A DNA stretch of 64,000 bases from Dehalococcoidia bacterium (GTDB lineage: Bacteria > Chloroflexota > Dehalococcoidia > Lucifugimonadales > UBA3495), in contig OZ242043.1 in assembly GCA_965205185.1 (NCBI GenBank), positions 661,584 to 725,583 of the forward strand, in the 5' to 3' direction. The notes beneath the pieces were generated by a model. That model saw only the letters and a list, made by a program, of their open reading frames with translations. It searched no databases and was not told where the DNA came from. Both the position numbers and the translations under genes were made by a program. Below, one piece after another: positions 1 through 44,456 of the stretch (the stretch's first letter is position 1; every line of letters begins with the position of its first letter).

Positions 1-2117
1 TCATCGTTACCTTGCCGGTCACCGCCACCGAAGCCGGCGGCGAGCGCGGCGTGTATGCTATGTCGGTGCTGGAAAATATCCTCAGCCGGATGCAGGCGGT
101 GACCCAAGTGGCGCAGGCCAGCAACGATGAAGCCTTTGCCGTAGTGCGCCGGCGGCTGTTCCAGGAGGATTGCGACGAGGCGGCCCGGGAGGCGGTCTGC
201 CATGCCTTTTACCGGATCTACCAGCGGGGCGGCGGCGATTACCCGCCCGAAGCCCGCGAAACCCGCTACCTGGACCGCCTGCGCCAGTGCTACCCGATCC
301 ACCCCGAGATCTTTGACCGGCTTTATGACGACTGGTCGTTATATCACCAGTTCCAGCGCACCCGGGGCGTGCTGCGGATGATGGCGCAGACCATCCGGTG
401 GCTTTGCGCCAACGGCGACCAATCGCCGCTGATTATGCCGGGGAATCTGCCGTTCAGCGAGGGGTCGATCAGCGAGGAGTTCCTGCGGCTGCTGGGGCCG
501 CAGTGGAGCGCGGTGATGGGCGAGGTGGACGGCGACAATTCGCGGACTCACGTGATAGACCGGCAGAAACCGGAGCGGTTCGGCTCGGTGGGCGGCGCCG
601 CCCGCCGGGTGGCCCGCGCCGCGTTCTTGGGCAGCTCCACCCAGAAAGCGGTTCGCGGCCTCACCGCCCGGCAAATCAACCTCGCGGTGGCCGCCCCGGG
701 GCACGGCGTCGCGGCCTATGCCGAGGCGCTCCAAATTATGGACGGGGAGTTGTATCATTTCTATCGGGGCAACGATCACCGCTATTATTTCGATTCCGAC
801 GAAAATCTCAACAAGGTTGCCAACGACCGGGCCGCCGAACTGGGCAGCGAGGAACTGGACGCCGAAATCGTGCGCCGCCTCAACGAGTACACCCGGCGGG
901 ATCCCAACCGGGCGGTCATCGCCTGCCCGCCGTCGCCGGCCGAGGTGCGCGATGACGATTTCGCCCGCCTGATCATCCTACCCCCGGCCCAATCCAAGAA
1001 CAGCCGCGCCGCCGAGCGCGATTACGCCTCCGAAGCCGCCAAAGCAATGCTGGCGGTCTGCGGCCCCGACGTCCGCCGCACCCGGCCCAACACCCTGCTG
1101 TTCTTGGCGGCCTCCAGCGACGGCGTGCGCGAGATGCGGGCCGCGGCGCGGCGGTTCCTGGCTTGGGATTCGATGATCAACGGCAGCCGCCGGGTGGCCG
1201 GACTGTCCGGCGACCGGCTGACCCAATGCCGCGGCCAGTCGCAAGAGGCCGCCGACGCGCTCCACAACGCCCTGTCCAACGCCTACCGCTGGGCGATGGC
1301 CCCCGCCCAGCCCGACCCGCAAAAGGCCGAGTATGACACCACCGGCTGGCGGCAGATCGCCGGCGCCCAACCCGACATCGCCGACAATGCGCTGCAACGG
1401 TTCCTCGCCGATGAGTTGCTGGTGGACGCCCTGTCGCCGGCCGCCCTGGCCCGGCGGCTGCAAGAAAGCATCTGGAACGGCGCCAACCCCCGCTACCACC
1501 TCACCGTGGACGAACTCTGGGATCTGCTGACCCGCAACATCCATCTGGGGCTGCGGCTGCGCCACCGGGAAGTGCTGGAGCAATGCCTGGCCGCGGCGCT
1601 CCAATCCGGCGCCCTCGCCCGCGCCGACGGCTACGACGCCGGCACCGGCGAATACCGCAACCTCTCCCGCAGCATCGGCGAAAGCCCCCGCCCCTACCTG
1701 ACCGGCGCCACCCTGCTGGTGGAGCCGGATCTGGCGCAACTGCTGCTGGACGAATCCCGCGCCGCCGCCGCCGACGACGAAAGCGCCGCCCCCGCCGCCG
1801 ATACTGACCGCGGCGCAAGGGGCGCCCCCGCCCCCCCGCCGCCGCCCGAACCCCATCCCCCCCGCCCCCGCCGCATCATCGCCCGCAAGACGGTGGCGCG
1901 CCAAGAAGCGGTTTCCTACGATTTCAACACCACCATCCGCGACGAAATCGCCCGGGTGATGGCTAACGCCGGTTGCGCGGTCACCGTGGAAGTGATTGTC
2001 ACCGGCAACCATGACGCCGGAATCTCCGAAAACGCGGTTCGCAGCCTGCGCCTCAACAGTGATATGCTGGGCATTGCCCTGGACGATTCCACCGCCGACG
2101 GCCCCGCCGCCGGGTAG
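1..2117 (+). CDS. DUF499-family ATPase, C-terminal ~700 aa (5' end outside window)
   Basis: The frame is open to the window edge (track ORF 12..2117). The block YPIHPEIFDRLYDDWS..FQRTRGVLRMMAQT matches my memory of DUF499 proteins. The stop lies 9 nt before a DUF1156 methylase, the usual partner. Confidence 0.65.
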   Translation, partial: IVTLPVTATEAGGERGVYAMSVLENILSRMQAVTQVAQASNDEAFAVVRRRLFQEDCDEAAREAVCHAFYRIYQRGGGDYPPEARETRYLDRLRQCYPIHPEIFDRLYDDWSLYHQFQRTRGVLRMMAQTIRWLCANGDQSPLIMPGNLPFSEGSISEEFLRLLGPQWSAVMGEVDGDNSRTHVIDRQKPERFGSVGGAARRVARAAFLGSSTQKAVRGLTARQINLAVAAPGHGVAAYAEALQIMDGELYHFYRGNDHRYYFDSDENLNKVANDRAAELGSEELDAEIVRRLNEYTRRDPNRAVIACPPSPAEVRDDDFARLIILPPAQSKNSRAAERDYASEAAKAMLAVCGPDVRRTRPNTLLFLAASSDGVREMRAAARRFLAWDSMINGSRRVAGLSGDRLTQCRGQSQEAADALHNALSNAYRWAMAPAQPDPQKAEYDTTGWRQIAGAQPDIADNALQRFLADELLVDALSPAALARRLQESIWNGANPRYHLTVDELWDLLTRNIHLGLRLRHREVLEQCLAAALQSGALARADGYDAGTGEYRNLSRSIGESPRPYLTGATLLVEPDLAQLLLDESRAAAADDESAAPAADTDRGARGAPAPPPPPEPHPPRPRRIIARKTVARQEAVSYDFNTTIRDEIARVMANAGCAVTVEVIVTGNHDAGISENAVRSLRLNSDMLGIALDDSTADGPAAG

Positions 2118-2126
2118 CAAGGCCCA

Positions 2127-4946
2127 ATGCCGATGAACGCCGCCAACGCCGCCCCCCGCCGCAAGCTGATCGAGGTCGACTTGCCCCTGGACGTGATCAA
2201 CGCCGAGTCCGCCCGGGAAAAGTCGATCCGCCACGGCCACCCCTCTACCTTGCACTTGTGGTGGGCGCGGCGCCCCCTGGCCGCCTGCCGCGCCGTGATT
2301 TTCGCCAGCCTGGTAGACGACCCGGCCGATTGCCCGGAGGAGTTTGCCGATCTGGACGCCCAGCGCGCCGAGCGGCAGCGGCTGCACGATTTAATCCAGC
2401 GGCTGGTCAAGTGGGAAAACGGCAACGACGCCCCCCTGCTGGCCGCGGCCCGCTACGAAATCGCCCGCTCCATCGCCCGCGGCCGCGGCGATACCGCCCC
2501 CGCCGATCCCGCCGCAGTGCTGGAGTATCTTAACCGCGAAGCCCAGCCGATTTACGACCCCTTTTGCGGCGGCGGCTCCATTCCGCTGGAGGCGCAGCGC
2601 CTCGGCCTCCGCGCCATCGGCTCCGACCTTAACCCGGTGGCGGTGCTGATTACCAAGGCGCTGATCGAGCTGCCCCCCAAGTTCGCCCACCGCCCCCCGG
2701 TCAACCCCGACGCCGACCCGATGGGCTTGACCGTGGGCCGGGGGCGCAACGCCCAACAAATCCCGTGGCGCGGCGCCGCCGGCTTGGCCGACGATGTCCG
2801 CTACTACGGGCGCAAGATGCGGGAATGGGCGTATCAGCGCATCGGCCACCTCTACCCCCAAGCCCCCCTGCCCGGCGGCGGCGGCGCCACGGTCATCGCC
2901 TGGCTCTGGGCCCGCACCGTGCCTTGCCCCAACCCCGCCTGCGGCGTGGCTATGCCCTTGATGCGGAACTGGCAACTCTCTACCAAGAAAAACAATCTGC
3001 ACTGGATGAAACCCATCATTGACCGGGACAGTCAAAGCGTCTCATTCGTTGTGCAGAACCACAACCGGGACATCCCTAAAAGCGAAACAGTGAACCGGAA
3101 TAGCGCCACCTGCATCGCCTGCAATGGCGCCGTTACCCTGGAATACGTCCGCCAGCAGGCCCGCGGCGGCAATATGAGCGAAATTATGACCTGCGTCGTC
3201 GCCAAAGGCGACCGAAATCGAATTTTTATGTCAATAACCCCGGAAACAAAAAAAATCTTCTCAAGGGCGGCGGCCCCGTGGCGGCCCCAGCAACCTATGC
3301 CCACGACCGCTTACAAGGTAAGCGGTCGTGGGTATGGAATTACCCATTGGCATCAGCTATTCAATGAACGACAGTTGACCGCCTTAACCACTTTCAGCGA
3401 TACGTTGGCGGAAGTGAAACAACTGGTAATACACGATGGCGCGGCCGAGGAATATGCCAACGCGGTCGTTACCTACCTTGCTCTGGCTGTAAGCAAAATG
3501 GCGGATTCCAACAGCAGCTTTTCAACCTACCACTTGCCGCGTGAAAACGTGCGAAGCGTTTTCGCCCGGCAAGCGATCCCAATGGTTTGGGACTATGCTG
3601 AGGGCAATCCTTTCGCCGACGCGGCGGGGACTTGGAATCTGGTATTGGACAAAATCGTTAAAGTTTTGGAATACCTGCCGGATACCAACAACCACGGCCA
3701 AGTCTATCAAGCCGACGCCGCCACAACAATCCACGCCAACAATGGCCCGGTTATCGTTACCGATCCGCCCTATTACGACAATATCAGCTACGCCGAACTT
3801 TCCGACTTTTTCTATATATGGTTGCGCCCGCTACTACGGGAAATCTACCCCGATCTGTTTTCCGGTATAATGGTTCCCATCCAAGAGGAAATGATCGCCG
3901 CGCCGCGCTTTGAGAACGCCGAGGAACGTTTCGAGTCGCTGTTGGGGCAGTCGTTGCGTCTGATACGGGAACGGTGCAGCCCGGAGTTTCCGTCGTCCAT
4001 TTTCTACGCCTACAAGCAGCAGGAACAGGAACGGGATGGCGTAACTTCAACCGGCTGGGAAACGATGCTCACCGCGCTGATCAATGCCGGATTTCAGATT
4101 GTCGGCACTTGGCCGATGCGTACCGAAATGTCTAATAGGGCCAATGCCGTGGCCGCCAACACGTTGGCATCATCGGTCGTCCTGGTTTGCCGCCCGCGGC
4201 CAGAAAACGCGCCGGTTGCCAACCGGGGGGAATTCATCGCGGCGCTGGAACGGGAAATGCCGCCGAAGCTGGATCAGTTGACCCGGGAGGCGCACATCGC
4301 CCCGGTGGATTTGCGCCAAGCCGCCATCGGGATGGGGATGGCGGTCTATTCCCGCTACGGGAGCGTGGCTACGCTATCCGGCGAACCCGTGACGGTGCGC
4401 CAGGCGCTGATGGCGATTAACGATGCGGTAGACGCCTATCTGCGCCAGCAGGCCGGGGAATTGGATTCCGAAAGCCGTTTCTGTCTGGACTGGCTGCAAA
4501 CCCACCCCAAGGGGCAAGGCGATTACGGCACCGCCCTAAACTTGGCCCTCGCCTACAATTTGTCCATCGACGACCGGCTGGCGCAAACCCACCGGCTGCT
4601 CCAGGCCCGACAAGGAACTGTATCGTTATACGGGCTGGACGACTATCACACCGACCGCGCCTATCCGCCGGCGGGCGAGGAAATCACGGCATGGGAATGC
4701 TGCCTGCGGATGGCATGGCAGATGCAGATCGGGGATGACCGGGGCGGGGTAGCGGGCTGCGTGCCGGCGGCCCGCCGCGCCGCCGGCCGGTTGGATAGCG
4801 TCGAGCGCCTAGCCCGCATCCTCTACGACCACCACAACTCCCGCCACGAATCCCAACTAGCGGTAGCGTTCAACAACGTAGTAACGGCGTGGCCGGAAAT
4901 CACCCGCGAAACCGCCCGCCCAGAATCCGGCCGGCTGCTAGAGTAA
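2127..4946 (+). CDS. DUF1156-family N6-adenine DNA methyltransferase
   Basis: 939 aa. The N-terminal block KLIEVDLPLDVINAESAREKSIRHGHPSTLHLWWARRPLAA is typical of DUF1156. Catalytic motif IV is DPPY (TDPPYYDNISYAELSDFFYIWL). Confidence 0.85.
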   Translation: MPMNAANAAPRRKLIEVDLPLDVINAESAREKSIRHGHPSTLHLWWARRPLAACRAVIFASLVDDPADCPEEFADLDAQRAERQRLHDLIQRLVKWENGNDAPLLAAARYEIARSIARGRGDTAPADPAAVLEYLNREAQPIYDPFCGGGSIPLEAQRLGLRAIGSDLNPVAVLITKALIELPPKFAHRPPVNPDADPMGLTVGRGRNAQQIPWRGAAGLADDVRYYGRKMREWAYQRIGHLYPQAPLPGGGGATVIAWLWARTVPCPNPACGVAMPLMRNWQLSTKKNNLHWMKPIIDRDSQSVSFVVQNHNRDIPKSETVNRNSATCIACNGAVTLEYVRQQARGGNMSEIMTCVVAKGDRNRIFMSITPETKKIFSRAAAPWRPQQPMPTTAYKVSGRGYGITHWHQLFNERQLTALTTFSDTLAEVKQLVIHDGAAEEYANAVVTYLALAVSKMADSNSSFSTYHLPRENVRSVFARQAIPMVWDYAEGNPFADAAGTWNLVLDKIVKVLEYLPDTNNHGQVYQADAATTIHANNGPVIVTDPPYYDNISYAELSDFFYIWLRPLLREIYPDLFSGIMVPIQEEMIAAPRFENAEERFESLLGQSLRLIRERCSPEFPSSIFYAYKQQEQERDGVTSTGWETMLTALINAGFQIVGTWPMRTEMSNRANAVAANTLASSVVLVCRPRPENAPVANRGEFIAALEREMPPKLDQLTREAHIAPVDLRQAAIGMGMAVYSRYGSVATLSGEPVTVRQALMAINDAVDAYLRQQAGELDSESRFCLDWLQTHPKGQGDYGTALNLALAYNLSIDDRLAQTHRLLQARQGTVSLYGLDDYHTDRAYPPAGEEITAWECCLRMAWQMQIGDDRGGVAGCVPAARRAAGRLDSVERLARILYDHHNSRHESQLAVAFNNVVTAWPEITRETARPESGRLLE

Positions 4947-7276: not shown

Positions 7277-8923
7277 CTACTCCGCGTCTGCTCCGTCATC
7301 CTCCGGGGTAGGTTGCTGCTCCGCGCCGGCGAAATCGGCGATGAGGGCGGGCGCCGCCGAATCGAATCCTACCACATCCAGCATACCGCCGTCATCCGGA
7401 TCGGCGATGGAAAATCCGTTGCTCACCATACCGGCCACCACCAGCTTGGCGGGAATGCCCATCTCTTGCCGGTAGCGGCGGAGCGCTTCGGCTGGGTGGA
7501 TCGGGCCGGCCCAAGTTTCGCTGTCGGTCAAGATGATGAAGCAGTCCACCGGGATTTTGTGGTGCAGGGCGTCCAGCATGGGCAGGGCGCAGTCGGTGCC
7601 GCCGAAGGGCAGATCCTGGGTCTTGCGCATGGCGTCGGTCAGGCTGTCGCCGGCGGTTAGGTCCAGGTCGGCCATCTTGACGTCGGACCGGCTTATAGGG
7701 AATCTCGCTCCGCTGTTGCTGCTGAATCCCCGGATGACGTGGTTGGGCTCCCGGCGGGCGATGGCCATCGCCATAGCGCAGGCGGCCATCCGGGGCGTGA
7801 GGCCCGGCGTCCCGGCCACTTCGCCGGCGGACATTGACCCGGAGACGTCCAGCCCCAAGTAGATGCGTTGGCCGGTTTGGGGCGCGGCGTCAAAGGAACG
7901 CTCAAAGGCGGCGTCCAGGGCATCGCAGATTGGGGCTACGGGCGTCCATTCGCCGCGGCCGCGCCGCCCCTTGCCGTGGCGGTAGGTGAGCAGGGCTTTC
8001 AGCACGTTCAGCGGATGGATGCGGGGGCCGCCGTTGCCGATGCGCTCGATGCGTTTCACGGCCCAGTCGGCGTTCATGGGTTCGATGACGCCGACGCGGG
8101 TGAGAGTAGCCAAGTTCCGCACTAGGGCGTTGATGGGCATATTTACGCTGAGGGCCGCCCACACTTCGCGGGCTTTCAGGGCTTCGGCGGGAACCATTTC
8201 CCAGCTCATGCGATGTTGGCGCACCAGTTCGGCGGTTTCCGGGATGCCGGCGGTTTTGGCCTGCTCGAAAGCGCGGGCCAGTTCCAGCTCCGGGTATTCG
8301 TCGCCGGCGTCGCCTTGGGTGATCCAGTTGAACAGCCGCTGCCGCGGCCCTTCGGCCTTGGGGTGGGTTAGGCGCAGCAGATCCCGGTGGCTGTAGCCGC
8401 TGCGTTCCCGGTACTTGACGGTCTGGTAGACCAGATCTGCCAGCGGCCGGTTTTCGTACCAGGCGGCGACGGCCTTGCGCAGGGCGCGCCCCCAGCCGCG
8501 CATGGCGGCGGCGTAGGAGGCGAACTCCAATAGGTGGCTGCCGGTGCGGGCGACTTCGGGCAGTCTTTCCCGCGCCTGCCGCCTTGCGGATTTTTCGCCG
8601 TAGGTCACCGCCAGGGCCAGGGCGAACAGGGCGGGGGTGTTGCGCGGGGCGCGGCCGGACTTGCTGATTTCGCCGATGAGGTCCAGCCCCTTTTCCGTGT
8701 CGCTTTGGAGCAGCCGGAGGACCGCTTGGGCGTTTTCTTGGGTGAGCTGGCGCTCGCCGGCGTAGTAGCTGCCGCCCTCGGAACCCAAGATGAGGAACCG
8801 GGCCAGCCGGGTCTCGTCGGATACCGGGTAGACGTAGCCGCCGGCGCTGTTCGGCGTCTGTCCGGGCAAGGGTTCGGTCTGGGGCGTGGGCGTTTCGATG
8901 TAGCGGTTCAGGTAGGTGGTCAT
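7277..8923 (-). CDS. rsr: Ro60-related protein Rsr (TROVE domain + vWA/MIDAS)
   Basis: Start MTTYLNRY at ATG 8923 with AGAGGA upstream. The TROVE hallmark RFLILGSEGGSYYAGE is present, as is a C-terminal vWA domain with the MIDAS motif DVSGSM. Confidence 0.85.
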   Translation of the reverse strand: MTTYLNRYIETPTPQTEPLPGQTPNSAGGYVYPVSDETRLARFLILGSEGGSYYAGERQLTQENAQAVLRLLQSDTEKGLDLIGEISKSGRAPRNTPALFALALAVTYGEKSARRQARERLPEVARTGSHLLEFASYAAAMRGWGRALRKAVAAWYENRPLADLVYQTVKYRERSGYSHRDLLRLTHPKAEGPRQRLFNWITQGDAGDEYPELELARAFEQAKTAGIPETAELVRQHRMSWEMVPAEALKAREVWAALSVNMPINALVRNLATLTRVGVIEPMNADWAVKRIERIGNGGPRIHPLNVLKALLTYRHGKGRRGRGEWTPVAPICDALDAAFERSFDAAPQTGQRIYLGLDVSGSMSAGEVAGTPGLTPRMAACAMAMAIARREPNHVIRGFSSNSGARFPISRSDVKMADLDLTAGDSLTDAMRKTQDLPFGGTDCALPMLDALHHKIPVDCFIILTDSETWAGPIHPAEALRRYRQEMGIPAKLVVAGMVSNGFSIADPDDGGMLDVVGFDSAAPALIADFAGAEQQPTPEDDGADAE

Positions 8924-9151
8924 GGCGGCGGTTCCTCTTGCCGGAGCGGGCGGGAGGCTGAAAGCCCCCGGCGGACGGGTTGCGCTTCCTGGAAGCATCA
9001 TTAGCAGTGATAACCAGGGAGCATCGGCCCGCCGGGGCTTTAGGCTTTACATATCATTTTACGGATTAGTTCCGTTCCAATCAAGGATGCATGAACGGCG
9101 CAGCGGCAAAGGATCCTCGCGGAAATAATAATCGCAACCGGCAACCCCCGA

Positions 9152-33128: not shown

Positions 33129-33638
33129 TCACTCTTTGAGGTTGAGGAATAGGATGATGGGGCGGTGGGTCATAAAGGCGTAGTCGAAGGCTTGGGCGAT
33201 GGCGCGGGGCCAAGCGTCGAGGGGGACGCGGTAGTCGAGGACGAAGGCTTTGATGCGCATGGTTTCGACCATTTGGACGGCCATTTCGGAGAATTGGAAG
33301 TTGGCGGCGTTGAATTCGCCGAACCCGCCGCGGCGGACGGCTAGTAGTAGCATGGGGGCGTGGTAGGCCATGGCGTAGGTGGTGAGGGCGCCGATGCTGT
33401 TGCCTAGGCCGGTGTCCTGGTAGAACATTACGCTGCGTTTGCCGGTGAGGGCGAGGCCGGAGGCGATGCCGATGCCTTCCTCCTCGCGGGCGACGGGGAA
33501 GGCGCGGACGTTGGGGGCCTGGTCGAAGTGGGCGATGACCGGGGCGCCGAAGCTGTCGGGGATATGGATGAAGTATTCGATTTTGGCGGTTTCCAGGCCC
33601 TGGATTACGGCGTTGCAGGCGTCTTGGGGGTAGGCCAT
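33129..33638 (-). CDS. ThDP-dependent decarboxylase alpha subunit
   Basis: 169 aa from ATG 33638, with an N-terminal pyrimidine-binding domain (REEEGIGIASGLALTGKRSVMFYQDTGLGN). The track ORF extension to 34253 runs through rnpB and is an artefact. Confidence 0.8.
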   Translation of the reverse strand: MAYPQDACNAVIQGLETAKIEYFIHIPDSFGAPVIAHFDQAPNVRAFPVAREEEGIGIASGLALTGKRSVMFYQDTGLGNSIGALTTYAMAYHAPMLLLAVRRGGFGEFNAANFQFSEMAVQMVETMRIKAFVLDYRVPLDAWPRAIAQAFDYAFMTHRPIILFLNLKE

Positions 33639-33679
33639 TAGGGGTGTTCCTGTTGGGGGGTTGGGTTGGGGGTTTTGGG

Positions 33680-34220
33680 GCGGGAGGCCGGGCGGGCCTG
33701 TAAGCCGGGTTCTGTTCCCGCCATCCTTCGACAAGCTCAGGATGAGTGCGTTCTCGGTCGAGGGCGTGCTCAGGATGAGTACGTTCCTCAATGATGGGTA
33801 TGTTTTCAGTATTGAGGGCGTGCTCGGATGAGTTTGTCGGGGGATGGCGGGCGGTGACCATCTATCTAGCCCCCCGGCGTGGCCGGGGCCCGCGGTTGCG
33901 GGACGGCGTTGCCGCCGTGGTCGAGCGGCCAACCCGGGGACGAGCCGGGCGCTCATAGTCCCTCTATTCGGCCTTGCTCCGGGTGGGGTTTGGCCGCCGG
34001 TGCGTCGCCGCAACGGCCGGGCGCTCTTACCGCCCGATTTCACCCTTGCCCCGATTTCCGTGATGGAACTGGGGCGGTGTGTTTCTGCGCCACTTTCCGT
34101 CTCCTGCGCCGGACTGATCCATTGCGGGAGCCTGGGAGTTACCCAGCACCTTGCCCGGCGGAGCCCGGACTTTCCTCCCCGACGGGGTCGGGGCGGCCAC
34201 CCGGCCCGCTTGGCCTCCGC
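33680..34220 (-). ncRNA. rnpB: RNase P RNA, bacterial type A, with a 135-nt extra helix
   Basis: On the minus strand: the P4 5' strand GGAGGAAAGTCCGGGCTCC (34166-34184), the P4 3' strand ACAGAACCCGGCTTACA (33699-33715), and GGTAAGAGCGC and CCCGGAGCAAGGCC blocks. P1 pairs GCGGAGGCC..GCGGGCC with GGCCCGC..GGCCTCC, and P2 pairs GGTGGCC with GGTCACC. A promoter lies directly upstream. Confidence 0.9.
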
Positions 34221-34224
34221 TTTT

Positions 34225-34253
34225 ACTGTAGCACAGGGGGTTGGGGCGGTCAA
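34225..34253 (-). promoter_or_regulatory. rnpB promoter
   Basis: On the minus strand: TTGACC (34253-34248), a 17-nt spacer and TACAGT (34230-34225). The predicted start lies at about 34220 (GCGGAGG). Confidence 0.6.
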
Positions 34254-35709: not shown

Positions 35710-37635
35710 TTAATGGTTGGCCCTGAGGTAGCGGATGATTTCCATCATTACCTTGCAGTCAACTTCGTTGTATCGGGCTATTTCAGCCATTAGGGGCAAC
35801 TGGGTCATTGGCAGGCCCTTTTGCCGGGCCTCTTGGTCGCAACGCCATGCGCCTACCATTGCGCCCAAGCCGTCAAGGGGGCTGTCGGCCCAGTTGGTTT
35901 TGATGATGCCGTGGCGATGCATGGCATTGGCTACCGCCTTTAAGCCGAAGCCTAGAGCGCCTCTAACTGCTACAGGCTCCTCACGCATTACTTTCGACAG
36001 GAAATCGTACCAGCCCAGTTCCGGCCAATCGGAGTGGGGTTGGTGCCTTATTCTCGCCGAATTGTAGGCTTTCTCCAGAACGGTTGGCTCGGCGTGAGAC
36101 CAGTGGAAAATGCGGGGCTGGGCGTTGGACGGGTCGAGACGATCCCGGACTTGGGACATATAGTCCACCCATTCTTGGATGATGCGAAGCTCCTCCTTTT
36201 CATCCAGTCGGGGGACGGTGAATGATTGGAACTTCCATTCTCCTTGTTCCAGGTGGCCGCAGCCAATCATAAAGATGAGGGGTTGGCCTCCTTTTTCCGG
36301 GAGTTTGGTAAAGTCGTCGTTGAGGTCGCTGCAAAACTCGAAGTCTACATAGAACTCGGCGGCGGCGGCGTTGCGCCATTCGTTTCCGATTTTTTCGATT
36401 TTCCGGGGCAACACCGGCGGGCCGTTGTTGGCGGTATTGACCGCTAATATGCTGTCTAGGGTGGGGCCGGTTTTCCCGCCCTTCACTCTTACCGCGGCCG
36501 CGATAAGTCCGGGGGTGTCCCATCTGTATATGCCGGACTCGTGGGCTTGTTGGCGTTTGGCAAAGCCTACCTGCCATAGCTGGGTAAGCTCTTTTAGCTC
36601 GTCGGCCAGCCATTTTTTGACGCTCATCCAATGATCGTTCGGCGCTGCTTCATCGGAGTCCGGTTCGAGTTCGGCGGCTCTGATTTGCAACATCAGATCG
36701 CTGTCGTCAGCGTTACTCATGTTCGGATAAAGCTCAGGCACCGATGGTTCAGGCAGTAGCTGCCAGTGGTGGCCGTGGGTGCGAACCCGGGTGATCCAGT
36801 CTAGGGCTTTGGTAACGGCGTCGGCGATGGGGATGTTGCGGGCGATGGTTCCGGTTTGGGGAATCGGCGCCAGTCGTTCCAGGGCACTGGAGCCGCGGTA
36901 GGTTACTCTATTTTGCTCTCGTTGCCAGCCGCGCCCCAGCAGGTATGAATTGGGGGGCAGGAAACCTTGTAGGCGGCCCAGCATACGGTTGTAGATGTAT
37001 AGTTGCGCTTTGTAGGCCGGGTTGCTGTTGTCGTTGTTAAGGATGGCGCTGGCGTTCAGATGCAGGGTGGTGAATTTGGTATCTACTACCAGGTAGTGCC
37101 AGGCATGGTTTCCCAAGTCGGGGGCGGAGATTGCCGCTTCCTGTTCCGAAATTTCATTCGGGAACAGTTGACGTAGGATATCGCTTCGTATTAGGAAATC
37201 GGGGGAGCCGTAGTTCAGGTTGTGGGCGTCCCATAGTACGGCTTGGTAGATTACAGGCACGCCATGGCGCATCGTCTCGAAGGTTTGTTCGGCTTTGGCT
37301 TGGCTGGTTATTTCGCGATAGTCTTGGGCAATGGTGGTTACTTGATAACATTCTTGAAACAACCGGAGGATGCCTGCTTCGAATTCTTTGCCTTTCTCGA
37401 AAATGAAAGCCAGGAAATCGAGTTCTTTGACGTAATCGGCTGATTCCTGCTTTGGCAGGTAATCATGGTTTTTGCCGTAGAGGTTTAGCCAGTCCAGAAG
37501 GGGGTCGCCCATCATCCAGTTGCGGGTTTTGCCGGCGCTGATCCATTGTTGCCAATCTTGGCCGGTTATTGGAATTGCGACTTTAGATCCATCGTCCCGG
37601 TGGGTTATCGCAGCTATGCTCATAGGATACTCCAT
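35710..37635 (-). CDS. RecB-family nuclease (TM0106/COG2251-like): N-terminal PD-(D/E)XK + C-terminal RNase H-like exonuclease domain
   Basis: 641 aa. GSPDFLIR..YLVVDTKF gives the D..D-x-K pattern. The C-terminal FYVDFEF and YNEVDCKVMMEIIRYL resemble the exo I/III motifs of this family. GC content and skew are clearly lower than in the flanks. Confidence 0.65.
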   Translation of the reverse strand: MEYPMSIAAITHRDDGSKVAIPITGQDWQQWISAGKTRNWMMGDPLLDWLNLYGKNHDYLPKQESADYVKELDFLAFIFEKGKEFEAGILRLFQECYQVTTIAQDYREITSQAKAEQTFETMRHGVPVIYQAVLWDAHNLNYGSPDFLIRSDILRQLFPNEISEQEAAISAPDLGNHAWHYLVVDTKFTTLHLNASAILNNDNSNPAYKAQLYIYNRMLGRLQGFLPPNSYLLGRGWQREQNRVTYRGSSALERLAPIPQTGTIARNIPIADAVTKALDWITRVRTHGHHWQLLPEPSVPELYPNMSNADDSDLMLQIRAAELEPDSDEAAPNDHWMSVKKWLADELKELTQLWQVGFAKRQQAHESGIYRWDTPGLIAAAVRVKGGKTGPTLDSILAVNTANNGPPVLPRKIEKIGNEWRNAAAAEFYVDFEFCSDLNDDFTKLPEKGGQPLIFMIGCGHLEQGEWKFQSFTVPRLDEKEELRIIQEWVDYMSQVRDRLDPSNAQPRIFHWSHAEPTVLEKAYNSARIRHQPHSDWPELGWYDFLSKVMREEPVAVRGALGFGLKAVANAMHRHGIIKTNWADSPLDGLGAMVGAWRCDQEARQKGLPMTQLPLMAEIARYNEVDCKVMMEIIRYLRANH

Positions 37636-38356: not shown

Positions 38357-38401
38357 ATAGTATCGTCCCGCCGGATTGCTTTGTTTGGTGCGCTTTGGGG
38401 G

Positions 38402-38430
38402 ATTCTAGGAATGCTTGCCGCCGTTGTCAA
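38402..38430 (-). promoter_or_regulatory. promoter of the zinc-ribbon gene
   Basis: On the minus strand: TTGACA (38430-38425), a 17-nt spacer and TAGAAT (38407-38402). Confidence 0.55.
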
Positions 38431-38446
38431 CTTTGCCGGGGGCGGG

Positions 38447-38475
38447 GTGACAGATGGGGGCGGCGTTGTTAGAAT
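38447..38475 (+). promoter_or_regulatory. promoter of the Rieske oxygenase gene
   Basis: GTGACA (38447-52), a 17-nt spacer and TAGAAT (38470-75). It is divergent from the previous promoter. Confidence 0.5.
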
Positions 38476-38542
38476 GGGGGGATATTTCGCCTTGCGCGTT
38501 GGGGCGGGGGTTGGGTTGGGTAAAGGGCGATTTTGGGAGGAG

Positions 38543-39832
38543 ATGGCGATGGTTTTGTCGCGGATGGATAACGAGAGGCTTACGCTGGTGGGGGCGGGGA
38601 CGGCGATGGGGGAGACGATGCGGCGTTATTGGCTGCCGGCGCTGCTGTCGGATGAATTGCCGGAGCCGGATTGCCCGCCGGTGCGGGTGCGGCTTTTGGG
38701 GGAGGATTTGGTGGCTTTCCGGGATAGCGGCGGGCGGCTGGGGCTGCTGGAGGAGTTTTGTCCGCATCGGCGGACTTCGCTGTTTTTGGGGCGGAATGAG
38801 GAGGGCGGGCTGCGCTGCGTTTATCACGGGTGGAAGTTCGATGCGGCGGGGAATTGTCTGGATATGATGAACGAGCCGGAGGGGAGCGATTATCATACGA
38901 AGGTGAAGGCGGTTTCGTATCCGGCGGCGGAGATGGGCGGGGTGGTTTGGGCTTATATGGGGCCGGCGGGGCGGCGTCCGCCGTTGCCGCGCTTTGAGTG
39001 GACGCAGGTTCCCGATAGTCACCGGCTGGTGAGCAAGAACCGGCAGGAGTGTAATTGGTTGCAAGCGCTGGAGGGCGGGATCGATACGGCTCATGCGCCG
39101 ATTTTGCACCGGCGGATCACCAAGAACACCAGCCGGCCGGGGTTTGGGGTGGATACGGATTTTGTTACGGGGAAGGCGCCGAAGGTGGAGGTGGACCGGA
39201 CGGATTACGGGTATCGGTATGCGGGGATTCGGGCTTTGGAGGGGCAGGGCAAGAATTTTGTCCGGGCTTATCATTTCGTGCTGCCGTTTCACCAGATGCG
39301 GCCTTCGCAGTTCGGGCTGACCGGGGAGGCGCCGCGCACTTTGATTGCGGGGCATTGCTGGGTGCCTACGGATGATGCGAATTGCATGGTTTTCAATTGG
39401 ATTTACAGTTACGGGGAGGAGGCGCTGTCGGAGGCGGATCGGGATTTGGAGCGGCAATTGGGGCGGGGGCCGGAGGATTTGGATGCTAATTACCGGGCGG
39501 TGCGGAACCGGGATAATGACTGGATGATTGACCGCCGGGTGCAGAAGTATGAGACTTTTACCGGGATTGAGGGGATCAATACGCAGGATCAGGCGGTGCA
39601 GGAAAGCATGGGGGCGATTGTGGATCGTAGCAGGGAGCGTTTGGCGGCCAGCGATATGGCGATTGTGGCGGCCCGGCGGATGCTGCTGGGGGCGGCGGAT
39701 ATTGTGTCGGACGGGGGGGATCCGCCGGGTTTGTCGGAGAGTTATTACCGGCTGCGGGCGATTGACAGTATTTTGCCGGCGGAGGCGGTTTGGCAGGAGG
39801 CGCTGGCGGGGGAGATGTATCCGGGGGGGTAG
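38543..39832 (+). CDS. Rieske [2Fe-2S] non-heme iron oxygenase, alpha subunit type
   Basis: ATG at 38543 after GGGAGG. The Rieske motif is CPHRRTSL..CVYHGWKF. The catalytic domain carries the His motif (DTAHAPILH). Confidence 0.85.
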   Translation: MAMVLSRMDNERLTLVGAGTAMGETMRRYWLPALLSDELPEPDCPPVRVRLLGEDLVAFRDSGGRLGLLEEFCPHRRTSLFLGRNEEGGLRCVYHGWKFDAAGNCLDMMNEPEGSDYHTKVKAVSYPAAEMGGVVWAYMGPAGRRPPLPRFEWTQVPDSHRLVSKNRQECNWLQALEGGIDTAHAPILHRRITKNTSRPGFGVDTDFVTGKAPKVEVDRTDYGYRYAGIRALEGQGKNFVRAYHFVLPFHQMRPSQFGLTGEAPRTLIAGHCWVPTDDANCMVFNWIYSYGEEALSEADRDLERQLGRGPEDLDANYRAVRNRDNDWMIDRRVQKYETFTGIEGINTQDQAVQESMGAIVDRSRERLAASDMAIVAARRMLLGAADIVSDGGDPPGLSESYYRLRAIDSILPAEAVWQEALAGEMYPGG

Positions 39833-39851
39833 TGGGGTTGGGGGGATTGGC

Positions 39852-39879
39852 GGGCGGCGCTTTATACCAGCGCCGCCCT
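39852..39879 (+). terminator. intrinsic terminator hairpin of the oxygenase gene, separated from its T-tract by an IS insertion
   Basis: GGGCGGCGC-tttatacca-GCGCCGCCC. The matching T-tract TTTTTGTT resumes at 40570, right after the IS and its duplicated 8-mer. Confidence 0.55.
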
Positions 39880-40562
39880 GGTTCTGTAAAATTTGCTGGG
39901 TCATTTAGCTCAGGAAAGCCCCCCAAGTGTTCGGGTTTCGCGATAAACCTTCACTGCTGGCGGGTTAGATAAATAAGCCTATAGCTTTTCTCGATATGCG
40001 GGGGCATCTAATCTCCGTAAGTTAGAATTGAAAGAGTTGGAAAGCACCTCGCGAATTTCCCTTGTTAGGTGGTCATGGTCTAGGCACTAGTCATCAGATG
40101 TCCGGCTTTTACTGGGGCTGTGCCGCAGATAGCACACCCGCCCTTAGCATTTCAGTAAAAACTGGCGTTTCCTACGGTTTTCAATAGTTATAATGCGTAA
40201 CCAGCCCGTCGACATAGGCTTGTCCGGTTTCCCTAGCATTCAGACCCTTAGTGTCTTATCTCTATCCCTACCCTTGATTGTGCCTTGCAGACGCTCGCTT
40301 AGGTTGTTGCTGATTTCCGCCCGTATGCCTTGACTGGCGACGGGTTTCACCGGGCGGGTTGGAAAGGCCCGCGGCATGGTATTCCTATATGAACGCAGTC
40401 CATCGGTTTTAATCTGCCGGGGCGGATTTTCCGCCTTTTCCCTTGCCAATTCCAACGCCGTTGCCGCCGCCCTAGCAGTTTGCACCGGGGATAGATACGC
40501 CGCCAATAGGAATTTGCTATCCGACCTTGTATGATATACTACCCGGCAAATTTTACAGAACC
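39880..40562. mobile_element. decayed small DDE insertion sequence (IS6/IS240-like; family not certain), 683 bp
   Basis: 23-bp terminal inverted repeats: GGTTCTGTAAAATTTGCTGGGTC (39880-39902) and its complement at 40540-40562 (21/23 match). A perfect 8-bp direct target duplication GCCGCCCT lies at 39872-39879 and 40563-40570. The internal transposase is a fragment. Confidence 0.8.
40090..40506 (-). pseudogene. DDE transposase remnant (C-terminal part, frameshifted and stop-interrupted)
   Basis: Track ORF 40240..40506 reads IKTDGLRSYRN..ISNNLSERLQGTIKGRDRD. After its stop, another frame continues as GLNARETGQAYVDGLVTHYNY and is then broken by stops. The N-terminal half is absent. Confidence 0.6.
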
Positions 40563-40575
40563 GCCGCCCTTTTTG

Positions 40576-41073
40576 TTATTGCATTAGTTCGGGGCAAAGG
40601 AAGGTTATGGTTATGCCGTGCTGTTGGAGGGCGGCGCGGTGTTGCCACCAGTCGGTGTCGGCGGCGTTGAGGATTTGGGGGGCGGTTTGGGCGGCTAGGG
40701 CGACGGCTACGAATTTGCGGTCGCTGCGGTCGAAGGTTGCTAGGGTAGGGTCGTTGGGGAATTCGTTGAATTCGCGGTCGGGGTTGGGGGTTATGGGGAT
40801 TATGCGGCAGTGCTGCTCATCCCCCTGGTTTAATAATAGCCAATTGAAGAATCTGTCGCCGGGGCCCGGTTTGCCGGATGGGTTGAGGTAGGTATCATAT
40901 TCTTGAAAAATCAGATATTTGTCGTCCAGCAGCAAAATGCCTGCATCTTGTATTTGCTCCAGATGGTCTACGCAGGCCAGCACACACTCCAGGCCGGCTT
41001 GGGGTGTTTGGTTAGCGTTGGCTATGATGGGGACGTTGGTGTCTACTATGTATTCCGGCTTGTCGTGGTTCAT
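40576..41073 (-). CDS. PIN-like nuclease domain protein (165 aa)
   Basis: IVDTNVPI at the N-terminus, then acidic positions QEY, FDRSDRKF and NAADTDW spaced as in PIN folds. The ATG overlaps the upstream ATPase stop (ATGA). Confidence 0.55.
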   Translation of the reverse strand: MNHDKPEYIVDTNVPIIANANQTPQAGLECVLACVDHLEQIQDAGILLLDDKYLIFQEYDTYLNPSGKPGPGDRFFNWLLLNQGDEQHCRIIPITPNPDREFNEFPNDPTLATFDRSDRKFVAVALAAQTAPQILNAADTDWWQHRAALQQHGITITFLCPELMQ

Positions 41074-42275
41074 TCAGTGCCTAATCGCCTTTTTATTGCG
41101 GCCCGGGTCATTGCCGCTACTTCCCCGAATTGGTTGCCGAAGAAGTTTTTGGGCCAGTTTTTTATGTTTCCGTATTCGTCGAGATTCAGGGGTTCGAGAT
41201 GGCAGTGAGCGTCTTTGGGTTGGCAGTAGATTAGGCTGATGTCGTCGGCGGTTATTTTTTGTTCGGCTATGCGGCGTTGGAGGCGGTTCAGTAGGTGTTC
41301 GCTGTGGGTTTCGATCAGGATTTGGATTTGGCGGGTTTGGTGGGCGTCTATGATGATGTCGGCTAGGGCGGATTGGGCGTTGGGGTGCAGGTGGGTTTCG
41401 GGCTGGTTTAGTATTACGGCGGAGCCGGGCGGGGCGTGGTGGCATAGGGTTAGGGTTGGGAGTATTTGGGCGATGCCGGAGCCGGCGTCGGTTAGGGGTA
41501 TTTGGGTTCCGTTTTGGTGTTGGATTACCCGGACTTCAAATAGGTCTGGGTCTTGGGGGGTGGGGGTTATTTGGAAGTTTTGGGCTAGGCCGGTTTGCTT
41601 TAGCCAGTGGGCGATGCGGTGTTCCAAGTCGGGGTTTTGGGCTGCTTCGTTGGGGAGGGTGCGGGAGGACAGGATGGCGTCAATGGCTGATTCGCCGGAG
41701 GGGCCTATGGAGGTTGGGGGGGCTTTGGGGCGGGGGTAGGTTCGTTGAGGGTTGGCTCTTTGGGGGCTTAGGTAGTGGATGCTGGTTAGGCGCTTTTCCA
41801 GGGCTAGGTCAAAATTGGCGGCTATACCTTCTAATTGGGATGGGCCGGTTAGTTGGGATGGGCCGGCGCGGTAGTTCCTTTGGGCTACAGGCGGTTGGGG
41901 GGGCGAGTGGTGGTCTTGGCGTAGGGATAGGTCGAAGCCGATGTGATCGGTTTCGATGGTGGTTTTGTTCCTTTGGGTTATGGTGAACGGTTGCGGGGTT
42001 TTCCAGTCTAGGGATATTTTGAGCGGGTTGCGGGGGTTGCGGTGGTGGGCGATGCTGTTGAAGTCGCCTATGTCGGTTGGGGTGTCGGGGGCGCCGAAGT
42101 CCAGTACCGGGCCGGGGTTTGGGGATGCGGCGGTTTGCTTTAGTAGCAGGATGGCCTGGAGCAGGGCGGTTTTGCCGGAGCCGTTGGGGCCGAAAAGGGC
42201 GGTGATGGGTTTTAGGGGGATGGGGCCGGTGTCTGGCCAGCCTTTGAAGTTTTGCAGGCGCAGTTGGGTCAGCAT
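41070..42275 (-). CDS. ABC/SMC-type AAA ATPase (AAA_15/21-like with DUF3696-like C-terminus)
   Basis: LRLQNFKGW, Walker A GPNGSGKT, Walker B/D-loop ILNQPETHLHP, ETHSEHLL, and a C-terminal GNIKNWPKNFFGNQF. Confidence 0.8.
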   Translation of the reverse strand: MLTQLRLQNFKGWPDTGPIPLKPITALFGPNGSGKTALLQAILLLKQTAASPNPGPVLDFGAPDTPTDIGDFNSIAHHRNPRNPLKISLDWKTPQPFTITQRNKTTIETDHIGFDLSLRQDHHSPPQPPVAQRNYRAGPSQLTGPSQLEGIAANFDLALEKRLTSIHYLSPQRANPQRTYPRPKAPPTSIGPSGESAIDAILSSRTLPNEAAQNPDLEHRIAHWLKQTGLAQNFQITPTPQDPDLFEVRVIQHQNGTQIPLTDAGSGIAQILPTLTLCHHAPPGSAVILNQPETHLHPNAQSALADIIIDAHQTRQIQILIETHSEHLLNRLQRRIAEQKITADDISLIYCQPKDAHCHLEPLNLDEYGNIKNWPKNFFGNQFGEVAAMTRAAIKRRLGTE

Positions 42276-42287
42276 TGGGGTCCTCGC

Positions 42288-42470
42288 CTATGCCGGGGGG
42301 AGGATTATGGGGAGCGGTTCTACGGATTCCAGGCCCGGGGGGTTGATGGCGTCGAGGGATTCGAGGAGGGCGTTCAGGCTGTGCATTACTTCGGTTAGTT
42401 CGGGTTCCTGGATGTCGAGGCCGACGGCGCGGCCCAAGGATTGGATGTCGTCTTTGGACAGGTCGGGCAT
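42288..42470 (-). CDS. GatC-like small protein (60 aa), possible amidase accessory subunit
   Basis: ATG at 42470. MPDLSKDDIQSLGRAVGLDIQEPELTEVMHSLNALLESLDAINPPGLESVEP aligns by eye with this window's GatC (LDRDQIKHIAALARIAIPDAEIDAYAQQLSGIIDQFQVLNELDTTGIEP). The 706-aa track ORF is an artefact. Confidence 0.5.
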   Translation of the reverse strand: MPDLSKDDIQSLGRAVGLDIQEPELTEVMHSLNALLESLDAINPPGLESVEPLPIILPPA

Positions 42471-42626
42471 TTTGGGCTCCTTATACGGGATGGGTGGTTG
42501 TATAGTGCTGGATATTGGGTTGGGCGTCAAGGGGTTTCGTTGCGGGGGGCGGTTTGGGGTATACTTGGGGGGCTTCGGCTGAATTGTTGCCGGCCGGGGT
42601 TTTGGGGTTAGGCAGGATGGCAGGGT

Positions 42627-42944
42627 ATGGCGGATTATAAGGAAGTTCGGGTTGATCTTGGGGCGGAGTCGGATTTTGGGAAGCTGCCGGCGGCGGTGGA
42701 TGTTCGGGGGTGGTCTTACTTTTTGGCGCGGAGCCGGAAGGGGGTTTATCAGTTGCTTTCTACGGTTTGTCCGCATCAGATGGGGGAGGTGGTGGATTGG
42801 GGCGGGGTGTTTATGTGTCCGGATCATGGTTGGCGGTTTGAGTATTCCGAGGGGGTGTGCGTCAATGGGCCTAATTCGCGGATGACGGCGTTTCCGGTGA
42901 CGGTGGAGGGGGGGCGGCTGATTGCGGCGGTGCCGGAGGATTAG
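42627..42944 (+). CDS. Rieske [2Fe-2S] ferredoxin-like protein
   Basis: 105 aa with CPHQMG..CPDHGW. Confidence 0.75.
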   Translation: MADYKEVRVDLGAESDFGKLPAAVDVRGWSYFLARSRKGVYQLLSTVCPHQMGEVVDWGGVFMCPDHGWRFEYSEGVCVNGPNSRMTAFPVTVEGGRLIAAVPED

Positions 42945-43040
42945 GGCGGGACGGGGGGATGGCTGATTGCGGCGGTGCCGGAGGATTAGGGGGTTGGTTG
43001 GGGGGATGGCTGATTTGTAGCGCGATTGCGGGGGTTGGTT

Positions 43041-44456
43041 ATGGACCAGAGGGATCTTCCTTTTTTGAGCGCGGCGGAGTTGGGGCGGTTGATTGAGTTG
43101 CGGGAGGTGTCGCCGGTGGCGGCGGCGGAGGCGTATCTGGAGCGGATTGCGGCGGTGGATGGGCGGCTTTGTTCGTATATCACGGTTACGGGGGATTATG
43201 CGCTGGCGGAGGCGCGGGAGGCGGAGGCGGAAATCGCGGGCGGGGTTTACCGGGGGCCGTTGCATGGGGTGCCGGTGGCGGTGAAGGATCAGTTTTATAC
43301 CGCGGGGATTCGCACTACCGGGGGTTCGGCGATTCTGCGGGATTTCGTGCCGGGGGAGGATGCTACGGTGATGGCGCGGCTGAAAGCGGCGGGGGCGGTT
43401 TTGCTGGGCAAGCTGAATATGAGCGAGTTCGCGATGGCGGACATTTATGATCATGCTTACGGGACGCCGCGCAATCCGTGGGATTTGGCGCGGAATCCGG
43501 GGACTTCCAGCAGCGGTTGCGGGGCGGCGACGGCGGCGTTTTTGTGCGCGACTTCGCTGGGGGAGGATACGGGGGGGTCGATTCGGGGGCCGGCTAATTT
43601 CAGCGGGCTGGTGGGGCTGCGGCCTACTTATGGGCGGGTCAGCCGGTATGGGGTGATGGGGGGTTCGTGGTCGATGGATACGGTGGGGCCGATTGCGCGG
43701 ACGGTGGAGGATGCGGCGATCACTTTGCAGGCGATCGCGGGTTACGATGCCAAGGATCCGTATACGCGGGATGTGCCGGTTCCCGATTACCGGGCGGCAC
43801 TGGGGGGCGATTTGGCCGGGCTGCGGGTGGGGGTGGTGCGGGAGCGGATGGATGCGCCGAATCTGGATCCGGAGATGCGGGATGCAGTGGGGGCGGCGGC
43901 GGGGCTGCTGGGGGAGTTGGGGGCGGAGGTGCGGGAGGTGTCGATTCCGCTGGCGCCGGCGGCGGGGGCGGTTACGATGGCGATTATCGGGGTGGAGTGG
44001 GCCGGGCTGCATCGGGAGGTGTTTGAGGCTAATTGGGGGTTGATGGATCATAATAACCGGATCCGGTTTCTTACCGGGGGGGTGATTCCGGCGCAGGCGT
44101 ATGCCAAGGCGCAGAAGCTGCGGGCGTTGTTGCGGGGGCAGGTTTTGAGGGCGCTGGAGGAGGTGGATGCGCTGGTGTTGCCCAGCGGGGTGGGGCCGGC
44201 GCCGTTGGTGGAAAGCGCTCCGGGGGTGGCGAGTAAGGAGGCGGCTTTGGCGGGGTTGAATGCCCGGATCAGTTTTACGGGGGCGTTTAATTTGGCGGGG
44301 GTGCCGGCGGTGTCGGTGCCTTGCGGGTTTACGGGGTCGGGGCTGCCGTTGGGGTTGCAGGTGGCGGGGCGGCCGTTCGGGGAGGAGACTTTGCTGCGGG
44401 TGGGGCACGCTTACGAGCGGGCGGCGGGGTGGTATGCTAGGCGGCCTGATGTATAA
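43041..44456 (+). CDS. amidase-signature family amidase
   Basis: ATG at 43041 (MDQRDLPF). It has GVPVAVKD and GTSSSGCGAATAAF..GEDTGGSIRGPA. Confidence 0.9.
   Translation: MDQRDLPFLSAAELGRLIELREVSPVAAAEAYLERIAAVDGRLCSYITVTGDYALAEAREAEAEIAGGVYRGPLHGVPVAVKDQFYTAGIRTTGGSAILRDFVPGEDATVMARLKAAGAVLLGKLNMSEFAMADIYDHAYGTPRNPWDLARNPGTSSSGCGAATAAFLCATSLGEDTGGSIRGPANFSGLVGLRPTYGRVSRYGVMGGSWSMDTVGPIARTVEDAAITLQAIAGYDAKDPYTRDVPVPDYRAALGGDLAGLRVGVVRERMDAPNLDPEMRDAVGAAAGLLGELGAEVREVSIPLAPAAGAVTMAIIGVEWAGLHREVFEANWGLMDHNNRIRFLTGGVIPAQAYAKAQKLRALLRGQVLRALEEVDALVLPSGVGPAPLVESAPGVASKEAALAGLNARISFTGAFNLAGVPAVSVPCGFTGSGLPLGLQVAGRPFGEETLLRVGHAYERAAGWYARRPDV

Follow-up and report, generated by a model that had tools for sequence, protein, structure and literature searches.

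Does an overlapping pair of genes for an ABC-type (ATP-binding cassette) ATPase and a PIN-like nuclease, found in a Dehalococcoidia bacterium, represent a new kind of defence system, or does it belong to a known one? The pair lies in a stretch of 64,000 nucleotides (contig OZ242043.1 of assembly GCA_965205185.1, positions 661,584 to 725,583), hereafter the window. An earlier note on this DNA had described the pair as a defence-type module of a sensor ATPase and a nuclease, and had suggested that it might be an uncharacterised system without a name. We found that the first part of this description holds and that the second does not; both proteins match profiles of HEC-03, so that the pair falls within a system which has already been named and validated by experiment (Payne et al. 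2024, bioRxiv 10.1101/2024.01.29.577857). The locus is a divergent HEC-03 member and not a novel kind of system; in annotation, the pair is to be labelled HEC-03 and not flagged as new. By analogy with the tested representative, and with moderate confidence, we read it as a two-gene anti-phage system that would work in this organism as described for that family.

Assignment of the pair to HEC-03

The coordinates of the pair, its motifs and its surroundings are collected in Table 1. The lengths, overlap and motifs quoted in the earlier note are all present as described. The ATGA overlap suggests that translation of the two genes is coupled. The family alignment shows no variation at residues G29, N31, S33, G34 and K35 of the Walker A motif in the ATPase; the other motifs seen are (N)QPETHLHP, DAGSGIAQ and ETHSE in the ATPase, and EYIVDTNV, FDRSDRKF and NAADTDW in the small protein. 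A scan of positions 39800-42700 for promoters and terminators gave counts at or under the shuffle expectation.

We compared both proteins with the defence profiles of PADLOC-DB v2, and the profiles for HEC-03 were recovered for both genes. The ATPase matches HEC-03B (PDLC04148; E = 4.1e-101, 337 bits) over two separate stretches, one on either side of a deleted segment, and its next matches are weaker: Menshen NsnB (4.3e-62), PDC-M55A (2.7e-59) and AriA (2.5e-25). The small protein has a single match, to HEC-03A (PDLC04147; E = 3.7e-36), in which its residues 8-162 align with positions 3-153 of the 159 in the profile. The two genes are also adjacent and co-oriented, as in HEC-03. On these profile matches, the pair is almost certainly a member of the HEC-03 family. 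Pfam families found in the ATPase are AAA_21 (1.5e-26), AAA_15 (9.8e-24) and DUF3696 (1.4e-8); NCBIfam has no model above threshold for either protein.

Payne et al. described nine "Hma-embedded candidates", and HEC-03, one of these, is composed of an ABC ATPase and a VapC-like PIN protein. With a representative expressed in E. coli, at least two phages showed plaquing reduced by orders of magnitude; both genes were needed for this defence, and the system was toxic upon induction with isopropyl β-D-1-thiogalactopyranoside (IPTG). The naming differs between sources, as the ATPase is A and the PIN protein B in Payne et al., while the names of the PADLOC hidden Markov models are reversed (bioRxiv 10.1101/2024.01.29.577857).

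The AlphaFold2 (AF2) model of the ATPase shows an ABC head fold with a predicted local distance difference test score (pLDDT) of 87.7 and a predicted template-modelling score (pTM) of 0.88. The nearest solved folds in a Foldseek search are Rad50/SMC heads, the OLD nuclease and PtuA (E about 1e-12), and the protein carries Walker A, a signature-like GxG and an H-loop. The head is NsnB/OLD/PtuA-like, with a C-terminal DUF3696 helix.

The small protein was aligned and modelled with 56 homologues. Its AF2 model (pLDDT 95.2, pTM 0.90) has five strands alternating with helices, and 17 of the 20 top matches in a fold search of the PDB are PIN or PIN-like proteins, among them VapC, SMG6, EST1A, PAE0151, Rrp44 and HARP/PRORP; the best is VapC 3zvk_C (probability 1.00, E = 2.4e-3). 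Among the homologues, residues D11, E58, D118 and D139 show little or no variation; the model puts them where strands end and helices begin, as is the case for the D-E-D-D residues of PIN domains. The assignment is based on this predicted fold and the conserved residues, as sequence-level searches were empty: a profile search against the PDB yielded chance SH3 matches only, and precomputed Pfam domains were found in none of the 120 small-protein homologues listed. Thus, as the earlier note had proposed from acidic residues, the small protein is, on its model and conserved residues, a divergent PIN-like nuclease, and it probably retains its putative active site.

The pairing of the two genes is conserved, a point on which the earlier note had made its proposal depend. 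When one genome was scanned per species, 439 relatives of the small protein were found, none closer than 60% identity, and in all 80 of the loci that were fetched the gene immediately upstream, in the same orientation, encodes a full-length HEC-03-type ATPase; these loci cover at least ten phyla, including Latescibacterota, Chloroflexota, Acidobacteriota, Planctomycetota, Cyanobacteria and Pseudomonadota. A sensitive profile search found 1,621 cluster representatives of the small protein at 50% identity, nearly all of which are stand-alone proteins of about 160-180 aa (amino acids). The PIN gene occurs on 11 plasmids, adjoining a "DUF3696 domain-containing protein" gene in most, and had no match among 50,697 phage records. 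Neighbours in other genomes are often Hma, type I restriction-modification (R-M) or DISARM/BREX-like helicase genes, in agreement with how HEC-03 was discovered.

Relation to other systems and a possible mechanism

Like described HEC-03 systems, the window pair combines an ABC ATPase carrying DUF3696 with a PIN protein of about 165 aa, in the same order and on the same strand, in an overlapping or tight operon. It differs from them in its shorter ATPase (401 versus about 453 aa, owing to a deletion in insert 1), in a Walker B motif with Asn-Gln (N-Q) in place of Glu-Gln (E-Q) and many other changed conserved residues, and in its setting outside Hma or any other defence system; the Hma genes of the window are about 36 kb away.

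The likeness to Menshen is the next closest. NsnB is an ABC ATPase with DUF3696 that has an altered Walker B dyad, an Arg for the Q motif and GxG for SGG (PMC12065111). The window ATPase likewise joins an ABC head to a DUF3696 tail and has an altered Walker B, an Arg for the Q motif and GxG for SGG, and its partner has a PIN-like fold. However, the pair has no gene for an NsnA (ParB-DUF262) sensor with it, and no neighbouring ORF (open reading frame) has a PADLOC match; and whereas NsnC is an inactive PIN adaptor joined to a C-terminal nuclease, the window PIN protein stands alone at 165 aa and has kept its D-E-D-D candidates. PARIS and Septu resemble the window pair in that an ABC ATPase controls or sequesters a separate nuclease effector, and AriA and PtuA are recovered by the profile and fold searches with the window ATPase, respectively; their effectors are Toprim (AriB) or HNH (PtuB) proteins and not PIN-like ones, AriB has no match here, and their profiles match much less strongly than those of HEC-03. 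The ATPase head is also of the AAA_15/AAA_21 class of OLD and GajA, and Thermus OLD (6p74) is its best sequence match in the PDB (1.9e-13), but there is no fused Toprim and no GajB helicase, and the GajA profile matches the N-terminal P-loop region only.

Homology to Menshen NsnB-NsnC is the basis of the mechanism that we propose. In AlphaFold 3 models, two DUF3696 tails of an NsnB dimer have the PIN-like N-domain of NsnC between them, and comparable arrangements of ATPase dimer and effector have been reported for PARIS and Septu (PMC12065111). In HEC-03, the paired DUF3696 tails of an ATPase oligomer would most likely hold a catalytically competent PIN protein in an inactive state. A phage cue would be detected by the ATPase through its variable inserts, upon which the PIN ribonuclease (RNase) would be released or activated and would cut host or phage RNA, leading to growth arrest (abortive infection).

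A conjugative plasmid of Aeromonas veronii (NZ_AP022291.1; L087:5599-8227) carries a HEC-03 pair followed, 4 bp downstream, by a gene annotated "RNA ligase family protein", the whole being surrounded by AbiEii, Hok/Gef and GTPase-associated-system (GASH) genes. Possibly, this is a HEC-03 variant with a third gene, which would point to RNA as the target or to RNA repair; the ligase-family gene is compatible with the former.

Erosion and constraint in the window copy

A number of observations weigh against a pair that still works as described, and they concern the small protein, the setting, the ATPase and the comparison between strains. The likeness of the small protein to solved PIN structures is distant (TM-scores of 0.4-0.55, about 10% identity and no PDB fold match at E <= 1e-3). 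The domain families named in the earlier note match the ATPase, but no Pfam family, PIN models included, matches the small protein at E <= 1. Similarly, the defence-island setting that the note had raised is frequent in other genomes but is lacking here, as no neighbour within about 18 kb of the pair matches a PADLOC defence profile.

The ATPase belongs to a small clade of sequences that are 85-91% identical and 387-401 aa long, as against about 453 aa in the remaining family. In this clade, insert 1 is shorter by about 55 residues, and the conserved segment KCYGFPxQVR is among those lost; accordingly, the second stretch matched in the HEC-03 ATPase profile begins at position 190 of 458. The junction of the deletion carries a GPSQLTGPSQLEG duplication whose length differs among strains, a 9-bp indel relative to the sister contig L001 falls in the same area (41830-41838), and the pLDDT of the ATPase model drops there. 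In the Walker B motif, the clade reads ILNQPE where the family reads ILEQPE, with N290 (41406-41408) in place of Glu; the corresponding motifs are VIIEEPEMYLHP (VIIEEPE) in Thermus OLD and IILDEPTVYLD in Rad50. Alignment to these two proteins places a Gln at the catalytic-Glu position throughout the HEC-03 family, whereas the N-Q combination is confined to the seven sequences of the short clade among 120 close relatives and 80 genome loci, the others having EQ, EH, DQ or EE. Among about 190 relatives compared, an Asn at the Walker B acid position is found in this clade only. E293 of the QPE motif is kept. Since the Walker B acid is replaced by Asn and the catalytic-Glu position is Gln, canonical ATP hydrolysis by this ATPase appears doubtful. 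Furthermore, clade members mismatch 15-19 of the 114 columns conserved at 95% or more, compared with a family median of one and a maximum of 14. Among 20 inferred base changes at these lost positions, 15.5 are from G or T to A or C on the coding strand (15.5 versus 3.0), along the strand-specific mutational bias of the host, which the losses thus mostly follow.

We calculated pairwise ratios of nonsynonymous to synonymous substitution rates (dN/dS) among five syntenic strains, leaving out the LigXa gene. The ratio is about 0.5 in both genes of the pair (0.43-0.61 for the ATPase and 0.44-0.57 for the PIN gene), compared with 0.00-0.03 for the adjacent P450 gene and 0-0.24 for the CT398, amidase, ferredoxin and 60-aa ORF genes. 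Moreover, in the sister assemblies L082, L083 and L086, one of which is a complete genome of 3.97 Mb, the PIN gene is cut to two end fragments by an unskewed, compositionally foreign insert of about 1.65 kb (L082:8540-10195, L083:2965-4467 and L086:11345-12847); in these strains the ATPase is intact and its dN/dS is the same (0.50). The insert encodes a putative lineage-restricted orphan ORF of 500 aa (dN/dS 0.80) that has no match in Pfam, PADLOC or NCBIfam, and whose relatives among 5.8 billion proteins form only two clusters, at 88-91% identity and within its own lineage.

These observations would be explained if the pair were a decaying relic, that is, a descendant of HEC-03 that no longer works in defence, with an ATPase eroding under strand-specific mutation pressure and a dispensable effector. 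The intactness of the reading frames says little against this, since stop codons are rare on a strand rich in C and A and an open frame is therefore weak evidence of function. However, variation within the clade still shuns conserved positions, affecting 10% of the columns that are at least 95% conserved and 28-37% of the others (P = 1.2e-5, Mann-Whitney test), and every indel in the pair, across five strains, comprises whole codons; constraint has thus not vanished. The PIN protein also retains every family-invariant residue, the ATPase model still has an intact ABC fold, and a recent recombination tract appears to have spread the PIN-bearing allele among strains. That tract is seen in the comparison with L001, in which positions 40000-41300 of the window (the IS (insertion sequence) remnant, the PIN gene and the 3' end of the ATPase gene) show no difference over about 1.3 kb, against 130 differences in the whole syntenic block of 4.66 kb (binomial P = 7e-9 for the PIN and 3'-ATPase part). 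The 5' half of the ATPase gene is the most divergent part of the block (5-8%), and an identical tract beside so divergent a half points to recent recombination at this locus; the divergence itself points to a hyper-variable putative sensor region.

Weighing both sides, we consider a relic to be a serious but rather unlikely alternative to a working HEC-03 system. With its shortened insert 1, the Asn at the Walker B acid position and the weak purifying selection seen in the dN/dS values, this copy may be altered or attenuated in its activity; that the pair is attenuated or in slow decay is a reading we advance only tentatively. The locus has some value as a natural experiment: closely related strains carry PIN either intact or replaced, all of them with a hyper-variable sensor half in the ATPase, and their comparison could help in studying how defence systems are eroded or remodelled once fixed in a chromosome. 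As an observation apart, the ATPase frame of L001 is split into ORFs of 195 and 185 aa; we rejected its interpretation as a pseudogene, as the split comes from a single extra A in a metagenome contig of 5x coverage.

The same changes could also be read as specialization. The shortened clade would then be a functionally distinct subtype of HEC-03, with non-canonical ATP hydrolysis and an exchangeable partner, which we judge improbable; within that reading, and by analogy with the effector polymorphism of Menshen, replacement of PIN by the 500-aa orphan ORF would be a natural swap of effectors on a DUF3696 ATPase scaffold, an equally improbable event in our estimation. The Walker B variant offers a ready means of testing whether hydrolysis is required in the first place by ATPases of the HEC-03 and Menshen types.

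Still less probable, to our mind, is a toxin-antitoxin (TA)-like or housekeeping role, in which the PIN RNase, as a toxin or an RNA-processing enzyme restrained by the ATPase, would serve genome stabilization or regulation under stress. Among solved structures, the small protein is indeed most like VapC toxins (3zvk, 6sd6, 3tnd and 5sv2), HEC-03 is toxic when induced, Pfam labels AAA_21 a "putative AbiEii toxin, Type IV TA system", the pair has a fixed position among metabolic genes without adjacent defence genes, and the Aeromonas plasmid copy sits among TA genes. Yet the gene upstream of PIN encodes not a VapB-like antitoxin but the 401-aa ATPase, and the HEC-03 ATPase is unrelated to VapB (Payne et al., bioRxiv 10.1101/2024.01.29.577857); the VapC likeness is the distant structural one given above, and Pfam recognises no PIN domain. 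A tested member of the family defends against phage and requires both genes for it, many relatives sit inside Hma or type I R-M systems, and fast evolution together with gene loss among strains is typical of accessory defence genes and not of housekeeping ones. Finally, a previously unrecognised ATPase-PIN system apart from all named ones deserves next to no credence, for although Pfam and NCBIfam give no specific name and RefSeq lists the PIN partner as a "hypothetical protein", the HEC-03 profile matches and the work of Payne et al. refute it.

Chromosomal setting and other features of the window

The pair occupies a fixed slot in every sister strain, bordered on one side by the 60-aa ORF, the Rieske ferredoxin and the amidase, and on the other by the LigXa oxygenase and a CT398 zinc-ribbon gene. 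The flanks given in the earlier note, a Rieske oxygenase and a Rieske ferredoxin/amidase cluster, are therefore correct, but its view of the pair as an inserted islet is not borne out. Because the pair has the same position in the sister strains and shares the extreme strand skew of the host (coding-strand GC skew of -0.44 for the ATPase gene and -0.30 for the PIN gene), its acquisition was an old one; it is an old, vertically inherited, stand-alone resident. Its fourfold-degenerate sites carry C at a frequency of 0.66, compared with 0.78-0.89 in core genes on the same strand.

The insertion sequence that the note had placed next to the pair is there as an indel of about 710 bp, missing from the sister contig L085, but it is a degenerate remnant and not an intact element: its 88-aa ORF (40240-40506, minus strand) matches DDE_Tnp_IS240 below threshold (E = 0.0056, 17.3 bits against a cut-off of 27). 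Since its composition is unskewed (GC skew +0.06, versus -0.30 to -0.44 for the pair), the remnant is, on composition, a recent arrival.

Table 1. Positions in the window of the gene pair, its motifs and other features
Feature	Position	Strand	Evidence
ABC-type ATPase assigned to HEC-03, 401 aa	41070..42275	-	PADLOC, Pfam, AF2, Foldseek
PIN-like putative effector assigned to HEC-03, 165 aa	40576..41073	-	PADLOC, AF2, PDB fold search, conserved acids
Stop/start overlap ATGA, 4 bases on coding strand	41070..41073	-	ORF list and sequence check
Walker A GPNGSGKT, ATPase residues 29-36	42168..42191	-	Sequence check
Walker B region AVILNQPETHLHP, ATPase residues 286-298	41382..41420	-	Mapping against Thermus OLD and Rad50
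DUF3696 C-terminal region, ATPase residues 341-386	41118..41255	-	Pfam 1.4e-8
Junction of clade-specific insert-1 deletion (between G138 and P139)	41820..41882	-	Alignment, gap in PADLOC profile
Candidate D-E-D-D: D11, E58, D118, D139	41041-41043, 40900-40902, 40720-40722, 40657-40659	-	56-homologue alignment
IS remnant (outside system), indel of about 710 bp with degenerate IS6/IS240-like transposase fragment	39860..40571	.	Indel against L085
60-aa ORF (outside system), ends 13 bp upstream of ATPase start	42288..42470	-	dN/dS 0-0.08
LigXa-type Rieske oxygenase	38381-39832	+	
Rieske ferredoxin	42627-42944	+	
Amidase	43026-44456	+	
HmaC, N-terminus cut by window edge	12-2117	+	PADLOC 1.4e-128
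HmaB, DUF1156 methylase	2127-4946	+	PADLOC 3.1e-266
Ro60/TROVE (Rsr-like) protein, Ro60 vWA domain	7277-9001	-	2.2e-58
Type IIG restriction-methyltransferase-like protein, 1078 aa	19695-22931	+	PADLOC REase_MTase_IIG 1.3e-53; Pfam N6_Mtase, Eco57I
Bacterial RNase P RNA class A	33685-34212	-	170.6 bits
641-aa ORF, no Pfam, NCBIfam or PADLOC match	35710-37635	-	

The skew extends over about 48 kb (16000-64000), with a GC skew of +0.14 to +0.48 and an AT skew of -0.12 to -0.38 regardless of gene direction, and fourfold-degenerate sites are 61-89% C in minus-strand genes and 76-82% G in plus-strand genes; the first 14 kb of the window are unskewed. We take the extreme skew to be real, as metagenome contigs of 94-97% identity have the same composition, and we know of no bacterial chromosome in which it is equally strong. 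One consequence is the presence of long spurious minus-strand ORFs, such as that at 42288-44408. The strand-specific mutation bias of the host can act as a clock for the residence time of genes.

The 60-aa ORF upstream of the ATPase gene is under strong purifying selection (0-1 nonsynonymous versus 4-8 synonymous changes) and matches nothing in Pfam, NCBIfam or PADLOC. We considered it as a third component of the system and rejected it, as it is present only in the sister-strain loci and in none of the 80 other HEC-03 loci; it may resemble the small GatC/AtzG-like partners of amidases.

An Hma system lies at the left edge of the window (12-4946, plus strand), about 36 kb from the pair; HmaA would lie beyond the window. 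The unskewed composition of this region suggests that it may have been acquired recently. In bacteria, Ro60 genes are usually found near Y-RNA genes; no Y-RNA was detected in the window at the Rfam gathering threshold. The RNase P RNA measures 528 nt against a model of 367 positions, which implies sizeable insertions, and is overlapped by a spurious ORF of 374 aa (33129-34253). The 641-aa ORF is present in L084, L085 and L086 and missing from L001 and L082, and its fourfold-site C frequency (0.50) is below that of its neighbours; we regard it as a probable accessory gene that varies between strains. Sister contigs carry several Uma2-family paralogues close to it.

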